Shown here in pieces: positions 26,894-63,234 of a DNA stretch of 64,000 nt. Position 1 is the stretch's first letter; each line of letters opens with the position of its first letter. Made by a program: the position numbers and the translations under genes. Origin of the DNA: an uncultured virus (IMG/VR IMGVR_UViG_3300046665_000306) (Duplodnaviria; Heunggongvirae; Uroviricota; Caudoviricetes); the IMG/VR virus record IMGVR_UViG_3300046665_000306, positions 1-64,000 of that record; one strand, 5' to 3'. The notes below the pieces were generated by a model that was not told the DNA's origin, did not search any database, and saw only the letters and a list, made by a program, of their open reading frames with translations.

Positions 26894-26976
26894 GCGCCCT
26901 TGGTGGAACTGGTAGACACAAGGGACTTAAAATCCCTCGCGAAAGCATACCGGTTCGAGTCCGGTAGGGCGTACCA
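26894..26976 (+). tRNA. tRNA-Leu(TAA)
   Basis: cloverleaf, loop CTTAAAA, long variable arm, encoded CCA. Confidence 0.95.
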
Positions 26977-26986
26977 CTTTATTATG

Positions 26987-27138
26987 AAACTGTTTAGGTG
27001 GGGAATGCTGGTTATGCTGATGACCTTGTTCCTTCAAGGTCTAATGAGGAAAGAAGTAGTTTCGAAGGCGGTTGCGACTGGCAGAGAAACATAAGGATAC
27101 TTGGTTCGATTCCCCTCAGTTCCCTTCCTAAACAGTTT
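26987..27138 (+). ncRNA. unknown structured RNA with pseudoknot and T-loop-like motif
   Basis: 12-bp closing stem AAACTGTTTAGG/CCTAAACAGTTT; GACCTTG/CAAGGTC; GGTTCGATTCC. Confidence 0.65.
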
Positions 27139-27251
27139 GCAGGGACCGGTTTATGGAGAATGGCGTATCCAGCCTTATGATAAAGGTTCCGGCTTCTTTG
27201 AGGTTGTTATCTCAGGGAACGAAGATGGTTTGATTCCATCCTGCAAGTCCA
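27136..27251 (+). ncRNA. tRNA-like RNA with expanded D-domain and long anticodon-position arm
   Basis: TTTGCAG/CTGCAAG-T-CCA; T arm GATGG-TTTGATT-CCATC. Confidence 0.7.
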
Positions 27252-27270
27252 GTTTTGAATGTTAAAGTTT

Positions 27271-27419
27271 GGCTCAACCTGAATTAACAGGTACTGAACC
27301 GCTGGAACAGAGGCACGAAGCCTTGATCGAGCGGAATGGATAAAGTAAATGAAACTCACGTAGAACGCCTATATGGCAAAGTGACGCAGAGATAACATTG
27401 CTTCGGTCCAGCCTTTTTT
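27271..27419 (+). ncRNA. candidate structured RNA
   Basis: several hairpins, GGCT/AGCC closing, ends in T6; non-coding gap between RNA genes. Confidence 0.45.
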
Positions 27420-27422
27420 CTT

Positions 27423-27496
27423 GGGCCTATAGCTTAATGGTAAAGCAATCGGCTTTTAACCGATTGACCTGAGTTCAATTCTCAGTGGGCCTACCA
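27423..27496 (+). tRNA. tRNA-Lys(TTT)
   Basis: cloverleaf, loop CTTTTAA, encoded CCA. Confidence 0.95.
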
Positions 27497-27524
27497 CATT
27501 TAATTTAGAAACTTTGATTATATA

Positions 27525-28082
27525 ATGACTAAAGAAAAATTAAGAAAATTAAATGGTTATGTTCTGAGATACGAACCAGATTATCCTAAATCTTTTACTA
27601 GTGGAGAAGCCGGTAGAAACGGGCATGAAGGATATGTTTATGAACATATTTATGTTATGGAAAAAGAGTTGGGGCGCGTTTTAGTAAGTGATGAAGAGGT
27701 ACATCATCTCGATTTTAACAGGTCCAATAACACTCCTTCAAATTTAATTGTATTAAGTTCTTCACATCATAGTAGATTACATAGATATTTAGAATCTATT
27801 GGTTTACAGGAAGAAAGTGCAGAACATAAGGATAGAATTTATACTTATATACCACGATGTGTTGTTTGTCTATACCCATTGCAAGATAAACAAAAACAAA
27901 CGTGCAGTTTGATTTGCCGGTCAGAAAGCTCCAACTTAAACAAGCCAGATAAGATAACTTTGGAAGAGGAATTAAAATACAATTCCATGGTTGCTTTATC
28001 CAAGAAATATGGTATGAGTGATAATGGGTTGAAGAAATACGCGAAGAGGATGGGCATTCAATTTCCTCTCAAGCGGAACTAA
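27525..28082 (+). CDS. HNH homing-type endonuclease with Zn-finger and C-terminal HTH
   Basis: YVYEH...EEVHHLDFNRSNNTPSNL; CxxC..CSxxC; AT-rich. Confidence 0.85.
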   Translation: MTKEKLRKLNGYVLRYEPDYPKSFTSGEAGRNGHEGYVYEHIYVMEKELGRVLVSDEEVHHLDFNRSNNTPSNLIVLSSSHHSRLHRYLESIGLQEESAEHKDRIYTYIPRCVVCLYPLQDKQKQTCSLICRSESSNLNKPDKITLEEELKYNSMVALSKKYGMSDNGLKKYAKRMGIQFPLKRN

Positions 28083-28090
28083 TTAAAAGT

Positions 28091-28210
28091 TTGCGTAGAT
28101 CGAAAGCGTTACCGATTCTTGGTTGTTGTTTTATAGAACCGGTAATTAATTCAGGAAGACTGCCTTAGCGGGTAGGAGGACTCAAGAGTAACAACCTGAG
28201 AGTCGCGCAA
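28091..28210 (+). ncRNA. unknown multibranched RNA with loop-loop pseudoknot
   Basis: TTGCGT/GCGCAA closing; GGTTGTTGTT complementary to AGTAACAACC. Confidence 0.6.
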
Positions 28211-28217
28211 TTCATAC

Positions 28218-28387
28218 GTGCTGTCTAATCAACAGCTAGTCGGAGGGTGGCACTTCGATGAATAGAAGTCGCTGTGATGGTGACAACCAAATCGCTCCTG
28301 TATCCGGGTAGGATCGTGGTGTGCCCGCGTAGGCTAAACATCGTGGAGGAGCTTGTAAAGTTCTGTTGAAGCGGGATTAGCCAGCAC
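28218..28387 (+). ncRNA. unknown multibranched RNA
   Basis: GTGCTG.CTAATC/GATTAG.CAGCAC closing stem; several internal hairpins. Confidence 0.6.
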
Positions 28388-28409
28388 TTAAATTTAAGAG
28401 GGTCTTGGT

Positions 28410-28670
28410 ATGATTATTAAACTGCTTGAAGAAAATTGGGATAAAATACTGCAAATCGGTGTAGAAGCAGAGCAGAGGATGAAGGCTTATATGGCTGGTA
28501 ATGTCATCTTTGAAGGGGTAACTCTTAAAGGCAAGAACCGAATCAACGAACACGGCGCGTGCTGGAAAGTTGTTGACACGCGAGACGGAAAAGTGCTATT
28601 CGAGGCTCTTAATACTGGATACCTGAAGTGGGGTCCAGAGCCAGATTTTAGGATCGTAGAGAGGGATTAG
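28410..28670 (+). CDS. hypothetical protein
   Basis: 86-aa ORF; LKGKNRINEHG. Confidence 0.7.
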   Translation: MIIKLLEENWDKILQIGVEAEQRMKAYMAGNVIFEGVTLKGKNRINEHGACWKVVDTRDGKVLFEALNTGYLKWGPEPDFRIVERD

Positions 28671-28674
28671 CATC

Positions 28675-28875
28675 ATGGGTGAGACCATTCTTATATATGA
28701 TGAGCGTTACGAAAGCGGGCCAAGATTTATTGGTTCGTTCAGGAACGTGCCAGAGGATTGGACCGCGAAAGAAACGCTGGTCCGTTACGGGATAGGTGAG
28801 CATCTGTGCGTGTATCGCGACAACTTCGTACCTAAGAATTGTATTCATCACGGAAAAAGATTTAGATCGGATTAA
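28675..28875 (+). CDS. hypothetical protein
   Basis: 66-aa ORF in operon. Confidence 0.6.
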   Translation: MGETILIYDERYESGPRFIGSFRNVPEDWTAKETLVRYGIGEHLCVYRDNFVPKNCIHHGKRFRSD

Positions 28876-28876
28876 T

Positions 28877-29086
28877 ATGAAAGATCAGTTTGGTTATACT
28901 CCCAATACGGGAGAAAGTTATCCACCATATTTTAATATTACTAAAGTTGATGGTGGGTATCGTGTGATAGTCAGGCGTAAAGCCGTTTGGGATGGTGATC
29001 TTTGTCTTCCCATGGGTGGTAATATTGTGGAAGAAACCTTCCCTGAAGATTTCATTGAGAAACTGAAAGAGTTTGTCAATGGCTAA
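28877..29086 (+). CDS. hypothetical protein
   Basis: ATG right after upstream stop. Confidence 0.65.
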   Translation: MKDQFGYTPNTGESYPPYFNITKVDGGYRVIVRRKAVWDGDLCLPMGGNIVEETFPEDFIEKLKEFVNG

Positions 29087-29405
29087 AAAGGTTGGAAATT
29101 ATAAAATTCCGTTTGATGAAATTGGGAATCAGTTACACTATCCCGGTTGGCATTGGTTTGACGGCAAGCGTTTCGAATGTGAGATGCGTGATAATCACGC
29201 CTTTGAAGATACAATAATCTTTGATTCTATGGAGCGTGGTCGGAGCGCTGCATATTTCTATTTTAAGCGATCCACAGGTGAAAGACTTGTTGTCTTCATG
29301 AAAGATTTATGCGATATGATGCCTCACGTTGTCAATGGCACAGTGACTGGCACGTTCACTTTCGTTAAGCGTGGTGCTAATTTTGGCACGGCATTAATCA
29401 GTTAA
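29079..29405 (+). CDS. hypothetical phage protein
   Basis: RGRSAAYFYF..FTFVKRGANFG motif. Confidence 0.75.
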   Translation: MAKKVGNYKIPFDEIGNQLHYPGWHWFDGKRFECEMRDNHAFEDTIIFDSMERGRSAAYFYFKRSTGERLVVFMKDLCDMMPHVVNGTVTGTFTFVKRGANFGTALIS

Positions 29406-29412
29406 AAGTTAA

Positions 29413-29487
29413 GGCTCCTTAGCTCAGTGGAAGAGCAGCGGTCTTCTAAACCGCAGGTCGCTGGTTTGAATCCAGCAGGAGTCGCCA
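29413..29487 (+). tRNA. tRNA-Arg(TCT)
   Basis: cloverleaf, loop CTTCTAA, T-loop variant TTTGAAT, CCA. Confidence 0.9.
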
Positions 29488-29492
29488 AATTC

Positions 29493-29569
29493 AGCCGTGT
29501 AGCTTAGCGGTCCAAAGCCGTCGGCTCATAACCGATTGATCCTGTGTTCGAATCACAGCATGGCTACCA
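29493..29569 (+). tRNA. tRNA with CAT anticodon (Met or Ile2)
   Basis: cloverleaf, loop CTCATAA, CCA; paired 1:72 argues against initiator. Confidence 0.9.
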
Positions 29570-60569: not shown

Positions 60570-60800
60570 CTACTCCAAGCTCATGTGACCGTTACACCCA
60601 ACCAACGTTCCTATCCGACCAAGGTTCCATTCATAGTTGCCTATCCCTGTCACGACTGGTTTGCCTAGGTCGGCCATCTCTAGCCCTGCCGCTCTCAGAT
60701 CAATGCTGAATTGGAGATTTGAATGTAGCCTCGCCTTGTTGCGAATCGCGATGAATTTCCTGATATTCTTGGTGTTAAGCATCACTAATCCTTGTCCCAT
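60570..60800 (-). CDS. hypothetical protein (start uncertain)
   Basis: ORF in operon. Confidence 0.55.
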   Translation of the reverse strand: MGQGLVMLNTKNIRKFIAIRNKARLHSNLQFSIDLRAAGLEMADLGKPVVTGIGNYEWNLGRIGTLVGCNGHMSLE

Positions 60801-61248
60801 CCGGCTTCAGCCTAACACCCTCGCCCGTTCCATCGCATGGATGATGACCGTGCACCGCGAAATATTTATCTCGCTTAATGATTTTCCCCTTGACAAGGAA
60901 TCCCCAACGAAACATTGGTGCGCCAGTGATGAGAAAGGTCCACGTATTACGTTTGACGTTTTGAACTGAATGCATATGATCCGCAGCACGATAGCGAATC
61001 ATTCCGGCCCTCATCCGCTCCACGTCTTTGACGAGAACTGCGCCCTCAATGGTTTCATAGGTCACATCGTCATAGCCGCCACGCAGCACGACAGTAACGA
61101 ACCAATAAGGATGATTGTGAGGGTGACGGTGATCGTCATCCCCGAGCCATTGGTGAAGCCTCACGCTCCACTTCTTGAACAGAACAGCCCATAGCCGGAA
61201 ATATGGACATTCGGGAAGACCACCGGCACGGTTCCAGATGATTTTCAT
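60775..61248 (-). CDS. cupin-like protein
   Basis: RLH....DDD..PHNHPYWF...VLRGGY...HSV. Confidence 0.8.
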   Translation of the reverse strand: MKIIWNRAGGLPECPYFRLWAVLFKKWSVRLHQWLGDDDHRHPHNHPYWFVTVVLRGGYDDVTYETIEGAVLVKDVERMRAGMIRYRAADHMHSVQNVKRNTWTFLITGAPMFRWGFLVKGKIIKRDKYFAVHGHHPCDGTGEGVRLKPDGTRISDA

Positions 61249-61386
61249 CTCAGCGTTCCAGATAGTCGCGAGCCTCGCCAAAGCTCATCTCGAAATCGAA
61301 GACAAGGGCTTGCATCGCCTCTGTCATGAAAATATCGCCATTCTTGTAGCTGGCTTTGACTTGACGCTTTGTCACATTGATCTCCT

Positions 61387-61974
61387 TTAAATTTTGTCCC
61401 AAACAGCGATAACCGCTTCGATGTAGCTATTATCTATCACAAACGTTTCACGAGGTAAATGATAAAACCTTACATCATGGAGAATCTTACAAATTTCGTC
61501 ACGGTATGCGGCATGGAGCAGAGCGACAAGTCTTCCACCCTCTGCAAGCTGAGACGCGGCATGACTGACATGCGTGACGCAATTACGATGGGGTGGATTC
61601 ATAACGACTCGGTCGAACAGATTGTCAAACTTTTGACATAGGAAATTGGTGTTCAAACATTCCACCGATGGATGTGAATCTATCAAATCAGCAAACATCT
61701 TCTTATTAAGTTCTATCGCCGTGATGTAGCGAGCGTGAACCTCAAGAGCTTCCACGATAGCACCAATTCCGGCACTAGGTTCAAGCACTCTGTCATGAAT
61801 TGTGATATCCGCAAGCGCGGCCATATCGGCGGCGAGCCACGACGGCGTCATGGTCGCAAGCAATTTGGTCCGGGGTGATGGGCTCGAACCACCGACACCT
61901 GTAGTTTCGTCCCTTATCCCCTTCAAATCATCTCCAACACTACTAGGGCCGGTTCTTGAGTTAATTACGCTCAT
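61387..61974 (-). CDS. class I SAM-dependent (amino-type) methyltransferase; ORF begins inside tRNA-like RNA
   Basis: VLEPSAGIGAI, AIELN, FDRVVMNPPH; alternative start ATG 61851 has no SD. Confidence 0.8.
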   Translation of the reverse strand: MSVINSRTGPSSVGDDLKGIRDETTGVGGSSPSPRTKLLATMTPSWLAADMAALADITIHDRVLEPSAGIGAIVEALEVHARYITAIELNKKMFADLIDSHPSVECLNTNFLCQKFDNLFDRVVMNPPHRNCVTHVSHAASQLAEGGRLVALLHAAYRDEICKILHDVRFYHLPRETFVIDNSYIEAVIAVWDKI

Positions 61975-62089
61975 TACTACATTCCTTTCATATCATTGAT
62001 TCATTTAAGGTTCAATTCATTCCTGTCGGTGATCAAGCCGGTCGAAATGAATCAGGCTAACAGTGCTCTACCAACTGAGCTAACCCCAG
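61866..62089 (-). ncRNA. tRNA-scaffolded RNA 1 with 152-nt insert replacing anticodon loop
   Basis: CTGGGGT/ACCCCGG-A-CCA; D arm GCTC-AGTTGGTA-GAGC; T arm GGTGG-TTCGAGC-CCATC. Confidence 0.85.
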
Positions 62090-62129
62090 AAATCTTCTTC
62101 AACCGTGGTTGAGGAAGCTTTATGTAATT

Positions 62130-62377
62130 TGGTCCAAGAGAATGGATTCGAACCACCAACCCCACGTTTTCTACCAATCCTTTTCAATTCCATTGTCGCG
62201 GTACTAAGTCTCTTTCATGAGTTGATCTGACTCACTACTTAATCCTTTTCAACGGCAATGTCCTATCCAATTCCATCTAATGCTGTAACACGATTTGTCA
62301 CATCGTTGCACTAAATAAGGCCGTGGTGCTCTACCTGCTACCTTTTGACACAAGGCATACTTTGGAGCTACCCTTGG
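62130..62377 (-). ncRNA. tRNA-scaffolded RNA 2 with D-loop hairpin and 155-nt insert replacing anticodon loop
   Basis: CCAAGGG/CTCTTGG-A-CCA; GCTC/GAGC; CCACG/CGTGG; T arm GGTGG-TTCGAAT-CCATT. Confidence 0.85.
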
Positions 62378-62412: not shown

Positions 62413-62441
62413 TATGTAAGACATTCGTTTCGTTTTGTCAA
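62413..62441 (-). promoter_or_regulatory. promoter of the tRNA-like RNA pair
   Basis: TTGACA-17-TACATA followed by a GAAA-tetraloop leader hairpin. Confidence 0.65.
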
Positions 62442-62525: not shown

Positions 62526-62912
62526 TTAGATATATTTCTCCACCTTAACGTAGTGTTCTTTCGCCGTCTCAATGAGACGTTGCTTCATATCTGCTGGACT
62601 TTTGGCAAAATCGTGAGCCCGCTGTAACTCGCGTAGGAACCAAATCAGGTTCTCAGAAAAATTATCCATAAAGTATCTCACGCCAGTAACAGCCATACTT
62701 TCAAATTCTTCCTTGTAATCCGCATCTGGCAAGATATGCCCTGCGGCGCAGCGGCAATCATTAGCACCGCGATACTTGCACTGAATATAACTTGGATCAA
62801 TATCCCACATCACACCTACCTGCTCAGGCACGACAGACTTGATAAAACCCTGCTTTTCAAGGGCGCTAAACACGACGTGAAAAAGTTCTTGCTCATTCGA
62901 AAATTGTGTCAT
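62526..62912 (-). CDS. phage protein, C.YR..RC.AG.(I/L)PD family (paralog of next)
   Basis: CKYRG..CRCAAGHILPD..LQRAHD. Confidence 0.75.
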   Translation of the reverse strand: MTQFSNEQELFHVVFSALEKQGFIKSVVPEQVGVMWDIDPSYIQCKYRGANDCRCAAGHILPDADYKEEFESMAVTGVRYFMDNFSENLIWFLRELQRAHDFAKSPADMKQRLIETAKEHYVKVEKYI

Positions 62913-63234
62913 CTGGTATCTCCAATTCGTGGCGCAGTCCTAGCTGTTGAAGCCTGTACCGCATCTCTTCAATCATCATTGATTCATCGTGAATTTCTTG
63001 AATTTCCTCGATAAAGTCAATATGTTCCATGTCTTTAAAGAAGTCAAGCTCTTTAATGAGGAAGCCTTCCATTTTACGAGCATTATAATCACTATCAGGA
63101 ATGAGCCAGCCAGCGGTACATCGGAGCTTTTTCCGTTTATTTCTATACCTGCACTCATATCCATCGGTGCATTGGCGGAAACCTTGAGACTTCATCCCGA
63201 GATAAATTTTATCGAAGATTTCTTGACGTGTCAT
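62893..63234 (-). CDS. phage protein, same family as previous
   Basis: CRYR..LRCTAGWLIPD..IQEIHD. Confidence 0.75.
   Translation of the reverse strand: MTRQEIFDKIYLGMKSQGFRQCTDGYECRYRNKRKKLRCTAGWLIPDSDYNARKMEGFLIKELDFFKDMEHIDFIEEIQEIHDESMMIEEMRYRLQQLGLRHELEIPDDTIFE

Follow-up and report, generated by a model that had tools for sequence, protein, structure and literature searches.

Structures that mimic tRNA and sit at the translation start of an enzyme gene serve as autoregulatory mRNA leaders, an example being the thrS operator of E. coli; yeast synthetase mRNAs are said to carry such leaders too. tmRNA (SsrA) has tRNA-like ends around a region with a reading frame; it bears a G3–U70 alanine identity pair, has no D stem, and its tag stops internally. 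It is found in some phages (PMC11915505). In intron-containing tRNA genes of bacteria and phages, the tRNA body is interrupted in the anticodon arm or the D loop. GOLLD, ROOL and OLE are structured RNAs of unknown function, the first two phage-borne near tRNAs. In a cryo-EM study of OLE and GOLLD, the loops L9.3 of OLE and L21a of GOLLD switch among the palindromes GGCC, GAUC and AGCU at intermolecular kissing bridges, and this switching was taken as evidence for intermolecular kissing loops (10.1101/2024.12.08.627333). On the enzyme side, NPP(Y/F/W) amino-methyltransferases such as M.TaqI, Erm/KsgA, Trm11 and METTL5 combine a class I fold with a SAM motif and NPP. The phage CcrColossus encodes gp358, which the genome description calls a putative rRNA methyltransferase with its function left open; the same paper reports no functional RNA besides tRNAs, by Rfam (PMC3556154).

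The window analyzed here, 64,000 nucleotides long, is the first 64 kb of the virus record IMGVR_UViG_3300046665_000306 (120,498 bases, estimated to be 66% complete). Its minus strand appears to carry a module composed of a promoter, one or more tRNA-like RNAs with C1–G72, A73, CCA and an aberrant anticodon arm, a minimal SAM methyltransferase and a cupin. The methyltransferase is a homologue of CcrColossus gp358 (40.6% identity), which is likewise followed by a cupin and preceded, in an unannotated gap, by two such RNAs, but which has its own Shine–Dalgarno (SD) sequence and ATG. An initial annotation of the window had proposed that both RNAs hold an SD with a conserved mini-ORF, and that one of them, RNA1, is read through into the methyltransferase. 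Of these two proposals, the mini-peptide fails; the read-through is upheld, as one element of a larger, undescribed RNA–enzyme module. No description of this module was found in the openly accessible main texts searched, nor in the accessible parts of PMC7824862, PMC5737381 and PMC11915505.

The region was present (at least half of its words) in five rhizosphere DNA runs, four of which may be its source, and no RNA runs carrying it were listed in the search of sequencing runs. Because one Logan contig of run X2 covers the whole RNA1/RNA2 region, and runs X4 and X5 show no alternative letters within the RNAs where these are covered, the sequence is not an assembly artefact, with the proviso that X2 and X4 may be the source sample. 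The host is likely alphaproteobacterial, since the nearest cultured methyltransferase matches belong to Rhizobium phage RHph_Y1_11 and the Caulobacter and Brevundimonas phages CcrColossus, CcrPW and Bajun.

RNA2 (248 nt, 62130..62377, minus strand; delimited by alignment with its orthologues L005_2 and L188) and RNA1 (224 nt, 61866..62089, minus strand; ARAGORN with introns, and alignment) both have a 7-bp acceptor stem, C1–G72, A73, CCA, a D arm and a T arm. The C1–G72/A73 combination presumably resembles the identity elements of tRNA-Pro. An insert of about 150 nt enlarges the anticodon arm of each RNA, and the D loop of RNA2 carries an additional hairpin (62337..62359, minus strand) whose loop is able to base-pair with that of the first insert hairpin (62295-62301); this complementarity is kept in all three RNA2 copies despite changed letters (−5.3, −4.7 and −1.7 kcal/mol). 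The first insert hairpin loop of RNA1, TTGATCA (62030..62036, minus strand), is self-complementary and also complementary to the second loop of RNA2, both in the window and in the related locus L005. Across seven aligned sequences, the acceptor, D and T helices are 100% paired, and five of the seven acceptor pairs are changed on both sides. Comparison of relatives thus marks the acceptor, T and D half of the tRNA as the constant part, and the anticodon arm as expanded or aberrant.

Narrow DNA patterns gave zero matches in viral contigs, blastn recovered nothing beyond the same phages and fragments of T or D arms, and Rfam returned a single match across seven related loci, a tRNA in L267. In the window, Rfam gave nothing besides a sub-threshold YrlA match (18.8 bits against a gathering threshold of 69, E 4.1), in which the T arm comes from RNA2 and the D arm from RNA1, whereas YrlA has both, in this order, within one RNA; YrlA identity was rejected. 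A relative in run X6 (record 11) has the D and T arms of RNA1 with another insert, at 162 nt. Between RNA2 and RNA1 lies a perfect hairpin (62094-62117), terminator-like on the plus strand, a near-identical copy of which is found upstream of RNA2 in L005. The spacer after RNA2 in L005 (2075-2229) and L188 (1544-1620) contains extra hairpins and T-loop-like GGTTCRA words, possibly tRNA fragments.

ARAGORN in its default mode, with no intron option, called neither RNA; with introns allowed, it read RNA1 as a tRNA-Phe(GAA) with an insert, the anticodon position being occupied by GAA (61908-61906). An intron-containing tRNA-Phe(GAA), in which removal of the insert between positions 31 and 33 and ligation of the two halves would give a working tRNA, could explain this reading, as well as the GAA that methyltransferase-linked members have at the anticodon distance; G72 is common in ordinary phage tRNA-Phe, and the genome encodes a T4-type RNA ligase. 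We nevertheless consider splicing improbable. The canonical 7-nt anticodon loop with U33 is absent, position 33 being C in RNA1 and A in RNA2, so that the joined loops would be without U33; Rfam gave no intron or ribozyme match, and the group I/II core motifs were not consistently found, although a very divergent ribozyme would be compatible with this. Further, the inserts of other clades have no blastn match to one another, and most members with the cupin as first gene are short (76–147 nt) and non-GAA, with loops often of 8–9 nt. The family differs from intron-containing tRNAs in the same respects: no group I/II match, clade-specific inserts of 0 to about 200 nt, and non-canonical joined loops. 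A hammerhead motif was likewise not supported.

Several observations concern ordinary tRNAs and the ligase. No ordinary tRNA-Phe was called in the record by ARAGORN; four ordinary tRNA genes (Leu-TAA, Lys-TTT, Arg-TCT and Met-CAT) lie at 26894-29569 of the window, on the plus strand. Many ordinary phage tRNA-Phe(GAA) genes (L181-L249) have G72 and G37, two positions at which the typical bacterial tRNA-Phe differs from them. The ligase, of T4 Rnl1 type (PF09511, E 1e-26), is encoded at about 110948-112129 of G000:C1 (L288 349-1530).

The proposed SD and mini-ORF sites lie where the initial annotation put them: in RNA2, AAGGA (62247-62243) stands 7 nt before GTG AGT CAG ATC AAC TCA TGA (62235-62215, minus strand), and in RNA1, AAGGA (61987-61983) stands 8 nt before ATG 61974 (minus strand). 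An insert-wide alignment was made of seven RNAs, all related, namely two each from the window and L005 and one each from L006, L188 and L002; L188 is the RNA2 orthologue of L006, sitting at the far end of the contig that starts with L006. The peptide M-S-x-I-N-S, earlier described as conserved, is complete in two of these seven RNAs, both of them window copies, and the peptides at the site read MSVINSR, MRVINSR, VSVASEP, VSQINS-stop, VGQINS-stop, LRYS-stop and LGVINPE. The SD, too, is lost in L188, which has AAGAA in place of AAGGA (−0.9 kcal/mol); its 10-nt loop has one extra base that breaks the frame and retains the TGAG/CTCA stem, the very type of homologue that had been named as refuting a coding frame. 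The Ser and Ile codon differences, previously read as synonymous, are swaps of the self-complementary loop tetramers AATT, GATC and AGCT within a covarying fold, the Ile change ATT/ATC being one half of a paired palindrome swap. In L002, the stem is TGGG/CCCG, changed on both sides. An SD-like 4-mer with a start and five sense codons is no rarity in itself: when the two inserts were shuffled with dinucleotides preserved, 876 of 2000 and 655 of 2000 shuffles, respectively, contained one. A conserved SD and mini-ORF in both RNAs, and with it a ribosome trap, is not supported.

The same site is better described as RNA structure. AAGGA is placed in an 8-nt irregular helix flanked by two AGUA/GAA motifs, which we take to be of the bulged-G type; this element is complete in five of the seven RNAs, partial in L006 and missing in L002. 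Together with the TGAG/CTCA hairpin and its GATC loop, it makes the RNA2 site (62215..62247, minus strand) what we read from its sequence as a structural arm, not a conserved coding frame, and the mini-ORF there would be a by-product of the duplicated fold. The second insert arm of RNA1 (61941..61989, minus strand) has its SD in the irregular helix and the start codon 61974 at the hairpin stem, and contains the palindromic loop TAATTA (61967-61962). This second-arm loop is self-complementary in all seven RNAs (TAATTA in three, GATC in two, TAGCTA in two). The consensus fold pairs 89.9% of cells, with 36 of 54 pairs changed on both sides, and beats all 500 shuffles and all slid controls, the consensus being derived from the same seven related sequences; sequences folded one at a time show nothing unusual (z 0.20 and −1.23), with the RNA1 SD left partly unpaired. 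Comparison supports the insert as a covarying fold with self-complementary loops. By sequence comparison, its switching among AATT, GATC and AGCT is similar to that of OLE and GOLLD, but the RNAs are far shorter than GOLLD, ROOL or OLE, lie inside a tRNA body, have no Rfam match and overlap coding sequence. The favoured RNA1–RNA2 loop pairing varies from phage to phage, and TAATTA self-pairing is weak (−2.0, computed).

These data also bear on a tmRNA-like model, in which each of the two RNAs would be a tRNA–mRNA hybrid recruiting or trapping ribosomes by means of a conserved SD and peptide. Both window copies do have an SD-like AAGGA and an NTG at the same site, and L005_2 retains AGGA and a six-codon frame. 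The NTG, however, follows from a stem that begins with TG, comparable patterns occur in 33–44% of shuffles, the peptide is complete in only two of seven copies, and L188 loses both SD and frame. The tRNA body argues against the model as well: it has a full D arm and an intact anticodon stem, G3–C70 in RNA1 and A3–U70 in RNA2 instead of G3–U70, and was not called as tmRNA by ARAGORN or Rfam; unlike the tmRNA tag, the RNA1 frame has its own SD and exits through the T arm and CCA. We regard this model as very unlikely.

The read-through from RNA1 into the methyltransferase is supported by a frame test and a protein census, and is more general than originally claimed. No stop interrupts the RNA1 frame across the T arm and CCA (61866); it continues to 61387 as a 195-aa ORF (61387..61974, minus strand), which encodes a class I SAM-dependent methyltransferase with an NPPH motif and has its first 36 codons within RNA1. 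Computed anti-SD pairing is −5.6 kcal/mol for ATG 61974 and +2.2 kcal/mol for ATG 61851. The initial annotation missed the in-frame TTG 61863 (−3.2) and TTG 61926 (−6.4), both possible alternative starts to ATG 61974 in the window. The database gene call for the window methyltransferase (P0001) starts at the LLATM position. In homologues, the residue at Met 61851, within a conserved L-x-A-T-x-T-P motif, is M, F, W, T, N, E, D or A, whereas the position of 61974 is occupied by Met exactly in P0003 and P0005 and by ATG or GTG in L005 and L006.

The frame test was applied on DNA to the T-arm frame (G-S-N-P) over the final 30 codons of the last RNA before the gene. This frame is stop-free in six of seven read-through copies (the window, L005, L006, L002, L251 and L180) and interrupted by at least one stop in all six upstream copies without a gene behind them (Fisher p 0.005), the read-through class being partly frame-defined and its members related. 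The seventh copy, L207, has a stop at codon 1, followed by an ATG. In L005, a 30-nt hairpin is inserted past CCA with the frame preserved. The cultured phage RHph_Y1_11 has an annotated 240-aa methyltransferase that begins at an ATG before the RNA, with a strong SD (−10.3), and crosses the entire RNA; ATG, GTG and TTG are absent there from CCA to the conserved TP-W-L-A helix. In L180 (IMGVR_UViG_3300000970_000008), an HNH-like endonuclease gene lies directly after CCA, between RNA and methyltransferase, in the read-through frame; this frame is preceded by GGAGGA, 7 nt and ATG inside the insert. The methyltransferase, displaced by the HNH gene, starts independently.

The protein census comprised 185 methyltransferase matches, 57 with a non-aromatic and 128 with an aromatic residue after NPP or CPP, and was biased in that query and profile included the T-arm peptide. 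A translated T arm was found in the window frame in 27 of the 57 non-aromatic proteins, as against one and four in the second and third frames. Inspection showed no Met after the T arm in 21 of the 27 (22 by script), and 25 to 43 codons separate the T arm from LEPSAG. The script matched the T-arm pattern in no member of the 128-protein aromatic group; by eye, P0010 and P0011 (NPPF) carry it. A test free of this query bias is given by the cupin homologues, in 7 of 50 of which the N-terminus is extended and includes a translated T arm, always in one shared frame; this was judged by eye, and two flags set by the script proved spurious. Nine loci have no methyltransferase and carry the cupin as the first or second gene after the RNA; five of them read through the RNA and have no ATG past CCA (L267, L268, L271, L273 and L274), and four have their own start. 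In L267, L268 and L273, the G-rich 5′ acceptor strand could provide the SD of a start codon located in the D loop (−6.0, −9.9 and −6.3).

Taken together, comparison indicates that in the window phage and many relatives, the first gene lacks a good start of its own past CCA and shares its frame with a probable start that lies within the last RNA or just upstream of it, and that the open frame from inside the RNA into this gene is apparently under selection. The overlap is nonetheless dispensable, since own starts are present in 7 of 14 methyltransferase-first loci with DNA (L001, L003, L004, L174, L245, L078 and L141) and in four of the nine cupin-first loci. In L078 (1735-1883) and L141 (1813-1963), the RNAs are tRNA-Phe(GAA)-like with D-loop inserts of about 75 nt; the methyltransferase ATG lies 6–7 nt past CCA, so the SD would be the 3′ strand of the acceptor stem (−7.1 and −6.5).

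The open frame shows translation, not regulation. The RNAs could be functional and non-coding, with the first gene merely borrowing a start inside or before them, and such a passive overlap, which we regard as possible but doubtful, explains the same frame data: the frame is kept since the protein must be made. It is in keeping with the start after CCA in about half of the loci with DNA, with start positions that vary by lineage (−238, −109, −82/−70 or in the D loop), and with an extension peptide that is not conserved and has a pLDDT under 50. Also, the 76-nt tRNA-Phe body closes the other two frames (by the D-arm UAG and by U33-G34-A35), which is sufficient alone to account for use of the G-S-N-P frame. 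Two points weigh against passive overlap: the arrangement persists across many protein clusters and three downstream genes, although 3′ processing costs protein, and in the window clade the SD and start lie within a conserved structural arm.

We therefore hypothesize, with moderate confidence, that the transcript has two exclusive fates and yields either enzyme or RNA. The operon would start at a strong promoter, followed by one or two tRNA-bodied RNAs, the methyltransferase and the cupin. In the first fate, ribosomes would initiate at 61974 on an unprocessed, unfolded leader and produce the methyltransferase with a disordered N-terminal tail. In the second, the RNA would fold, occluding SD and start, and host tRNA-processing nucleases would excise it, permanently removing the start. 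Folding and tRNA-type end processing being presumably incompatible with initiation at 61974, each transcript would give one product or the other, and the competition would limit enzyme output relative to RNA output. That tRNA 3′-end processing acts as an off-switch for the methyltransferase, as the initial annotation suggested, is a reasonable inference. Splicing to tRNA-Phe and the tmRNA-like trap fit the data worse than these two fates and passive overlap do. Compared with tRNA-mimic leaders, which are partial mimics, a whole tRNA body with CCA would here be translated as an N-terminus, and the genes concerned encode a methyltransferase, a cupin or an HNH nuclease. If true, translating a whole tRNA body as the N-terminal part of the gene behind it would be an uncommon way for bacteria and phages to control a gene; the arrangement recurs over many phage lineages and three downstream genes. 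Cultured phages carry both versions, RHph_Y1_11 with read-through and CcrColossus, CcrPW and Bajun with a separate start.

A sigma-70-like promoter (TTGACA, 17 nt, TACATA) was found by pattern scan at 62413..62441 on the minus strand; a stricter promoter scan missed it. For 15 of 24 first RNAs of the family, the pattern TTGAC-17-TA lies no more than 130 nt upstream, as against 220 of 4800 random windows. Upstream of the promoter, two tandem paralogous ORFs (62526-62912 and 62893-63234) both match phrog_17693. Methyltransferase-seeded locus scans yielded mostly ordinary relatives among the matches listed, which served as controls: a cupin is near every family methyltransferase locus of sufficient length and near none of these ordinary loci. 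L087 carries the methyltransferase and the cupin, and no RNA was seen upstream of the pair. In a scan seeded with the cupin only, a C1–G72 tRNA-like RNA was found upstream of the cupin in 22 of 26 loci, some of which are copies of one phage; L281 has a T-arm remnant only, L276 and L277 have none upstream, and L282 was left out. The RNAs at cupin loci span 76 to 276 nt and have GAA-bearing inserts, D-loop inserts or short aberrant loops. The annotations of JuJu, BcepNazgul and Tonenili leave no room for an RNA upstream of their distant cupins. The ordinary 75–79-nt tRNAs listed among 71 matches to a tRNA-Phe 3′ half with G72 have no methyltransferase behind them. In Paraglaciecola phage GD1, RNA ligase and phosphatase genes lie just upstream of the RNA–cupin pair.

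The AlphaFold model of the window methyltransferase shows a disordered tail (residues 1–31), with pLDDT under 50 across the N-terminal extension, whose peptide is not conserved, and, starting near residue 38, a class I core modelled with confidence; the extension is thus a passenger, not a domain. The predicted structure has the class I SAM-binding fold and motif I, and matches ErmE, aTrm11, M.TaqI and KsgA about equally (Z about 18, rmsd 1.8–2.4 over about 150 residues), a tie among DNA, rRNA and tRNA methyltransferases that singles out no substrate. PADLOC returned only generic methyltransferase matches. In contrast to the NPP(Y/F/W) enzymes, the family has a core of about 155 aa with no target-recognition domain (TRD), and the residue after NPP is H (NPPH in the window), K, R, I, M or others, with CPP in one clade; it is non-aromatic in the 32 script-counted T-arm-bearing proteins where the motif was read, the exceptions being P0011 (NPPF) and L141 (NPPW). 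The NLPK motif and GAA had suggested a Trm5- or wybutosine-like role at position 37 of tRNA-Phe, an idea weakened by the cupin-first members without GAA.

The cupin-fold protein (60775..61248, minus strand) is a constant partner of the RNA family, has invariant His44, His46 and His93 and belongs to PHROG 4786, labelled 'cysteine dioxygenase', an identity that Pfam does not support (no CDO_I hit). Its fold is that of a generic cupin (Z about 10), with tied matches that single out no substrate. The module links two functionally uncharacterized enzymes with an RNA family that has so far escaped annotation. Speculatively, methyltransferase and cupin might modify the RNA family or host tRNAs, the leader being both substrate and feedback control, and the released RNAs might be stable tRNA decoys against host tRNA-directed defence; that the enzymes perform RNA modification serving counter-defence is put forward with low confidence. 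Tentatively, the module may even represent an undescribed class of system, in which the tRNA body would be a processing scaffold for exchangeable, self-associating RNA cargo, a dedicated cupin and a TRD-less methyltransferase would work with it, the methyltransferase taking the RNA as substrate or specificity partner, and the RNA would control its partner enzyme as the translated 5′ end of that enzyme's mRNA. For annotation, the consequence is that tRNA finders overlook the RNA family and gene callers mis-start or over-extend the adjoining proteins. Between methyltransferase and cupin lies one further small ORF (61250..61375, minus strand), identified by sequence only, with its own SD-like AAGGAG.
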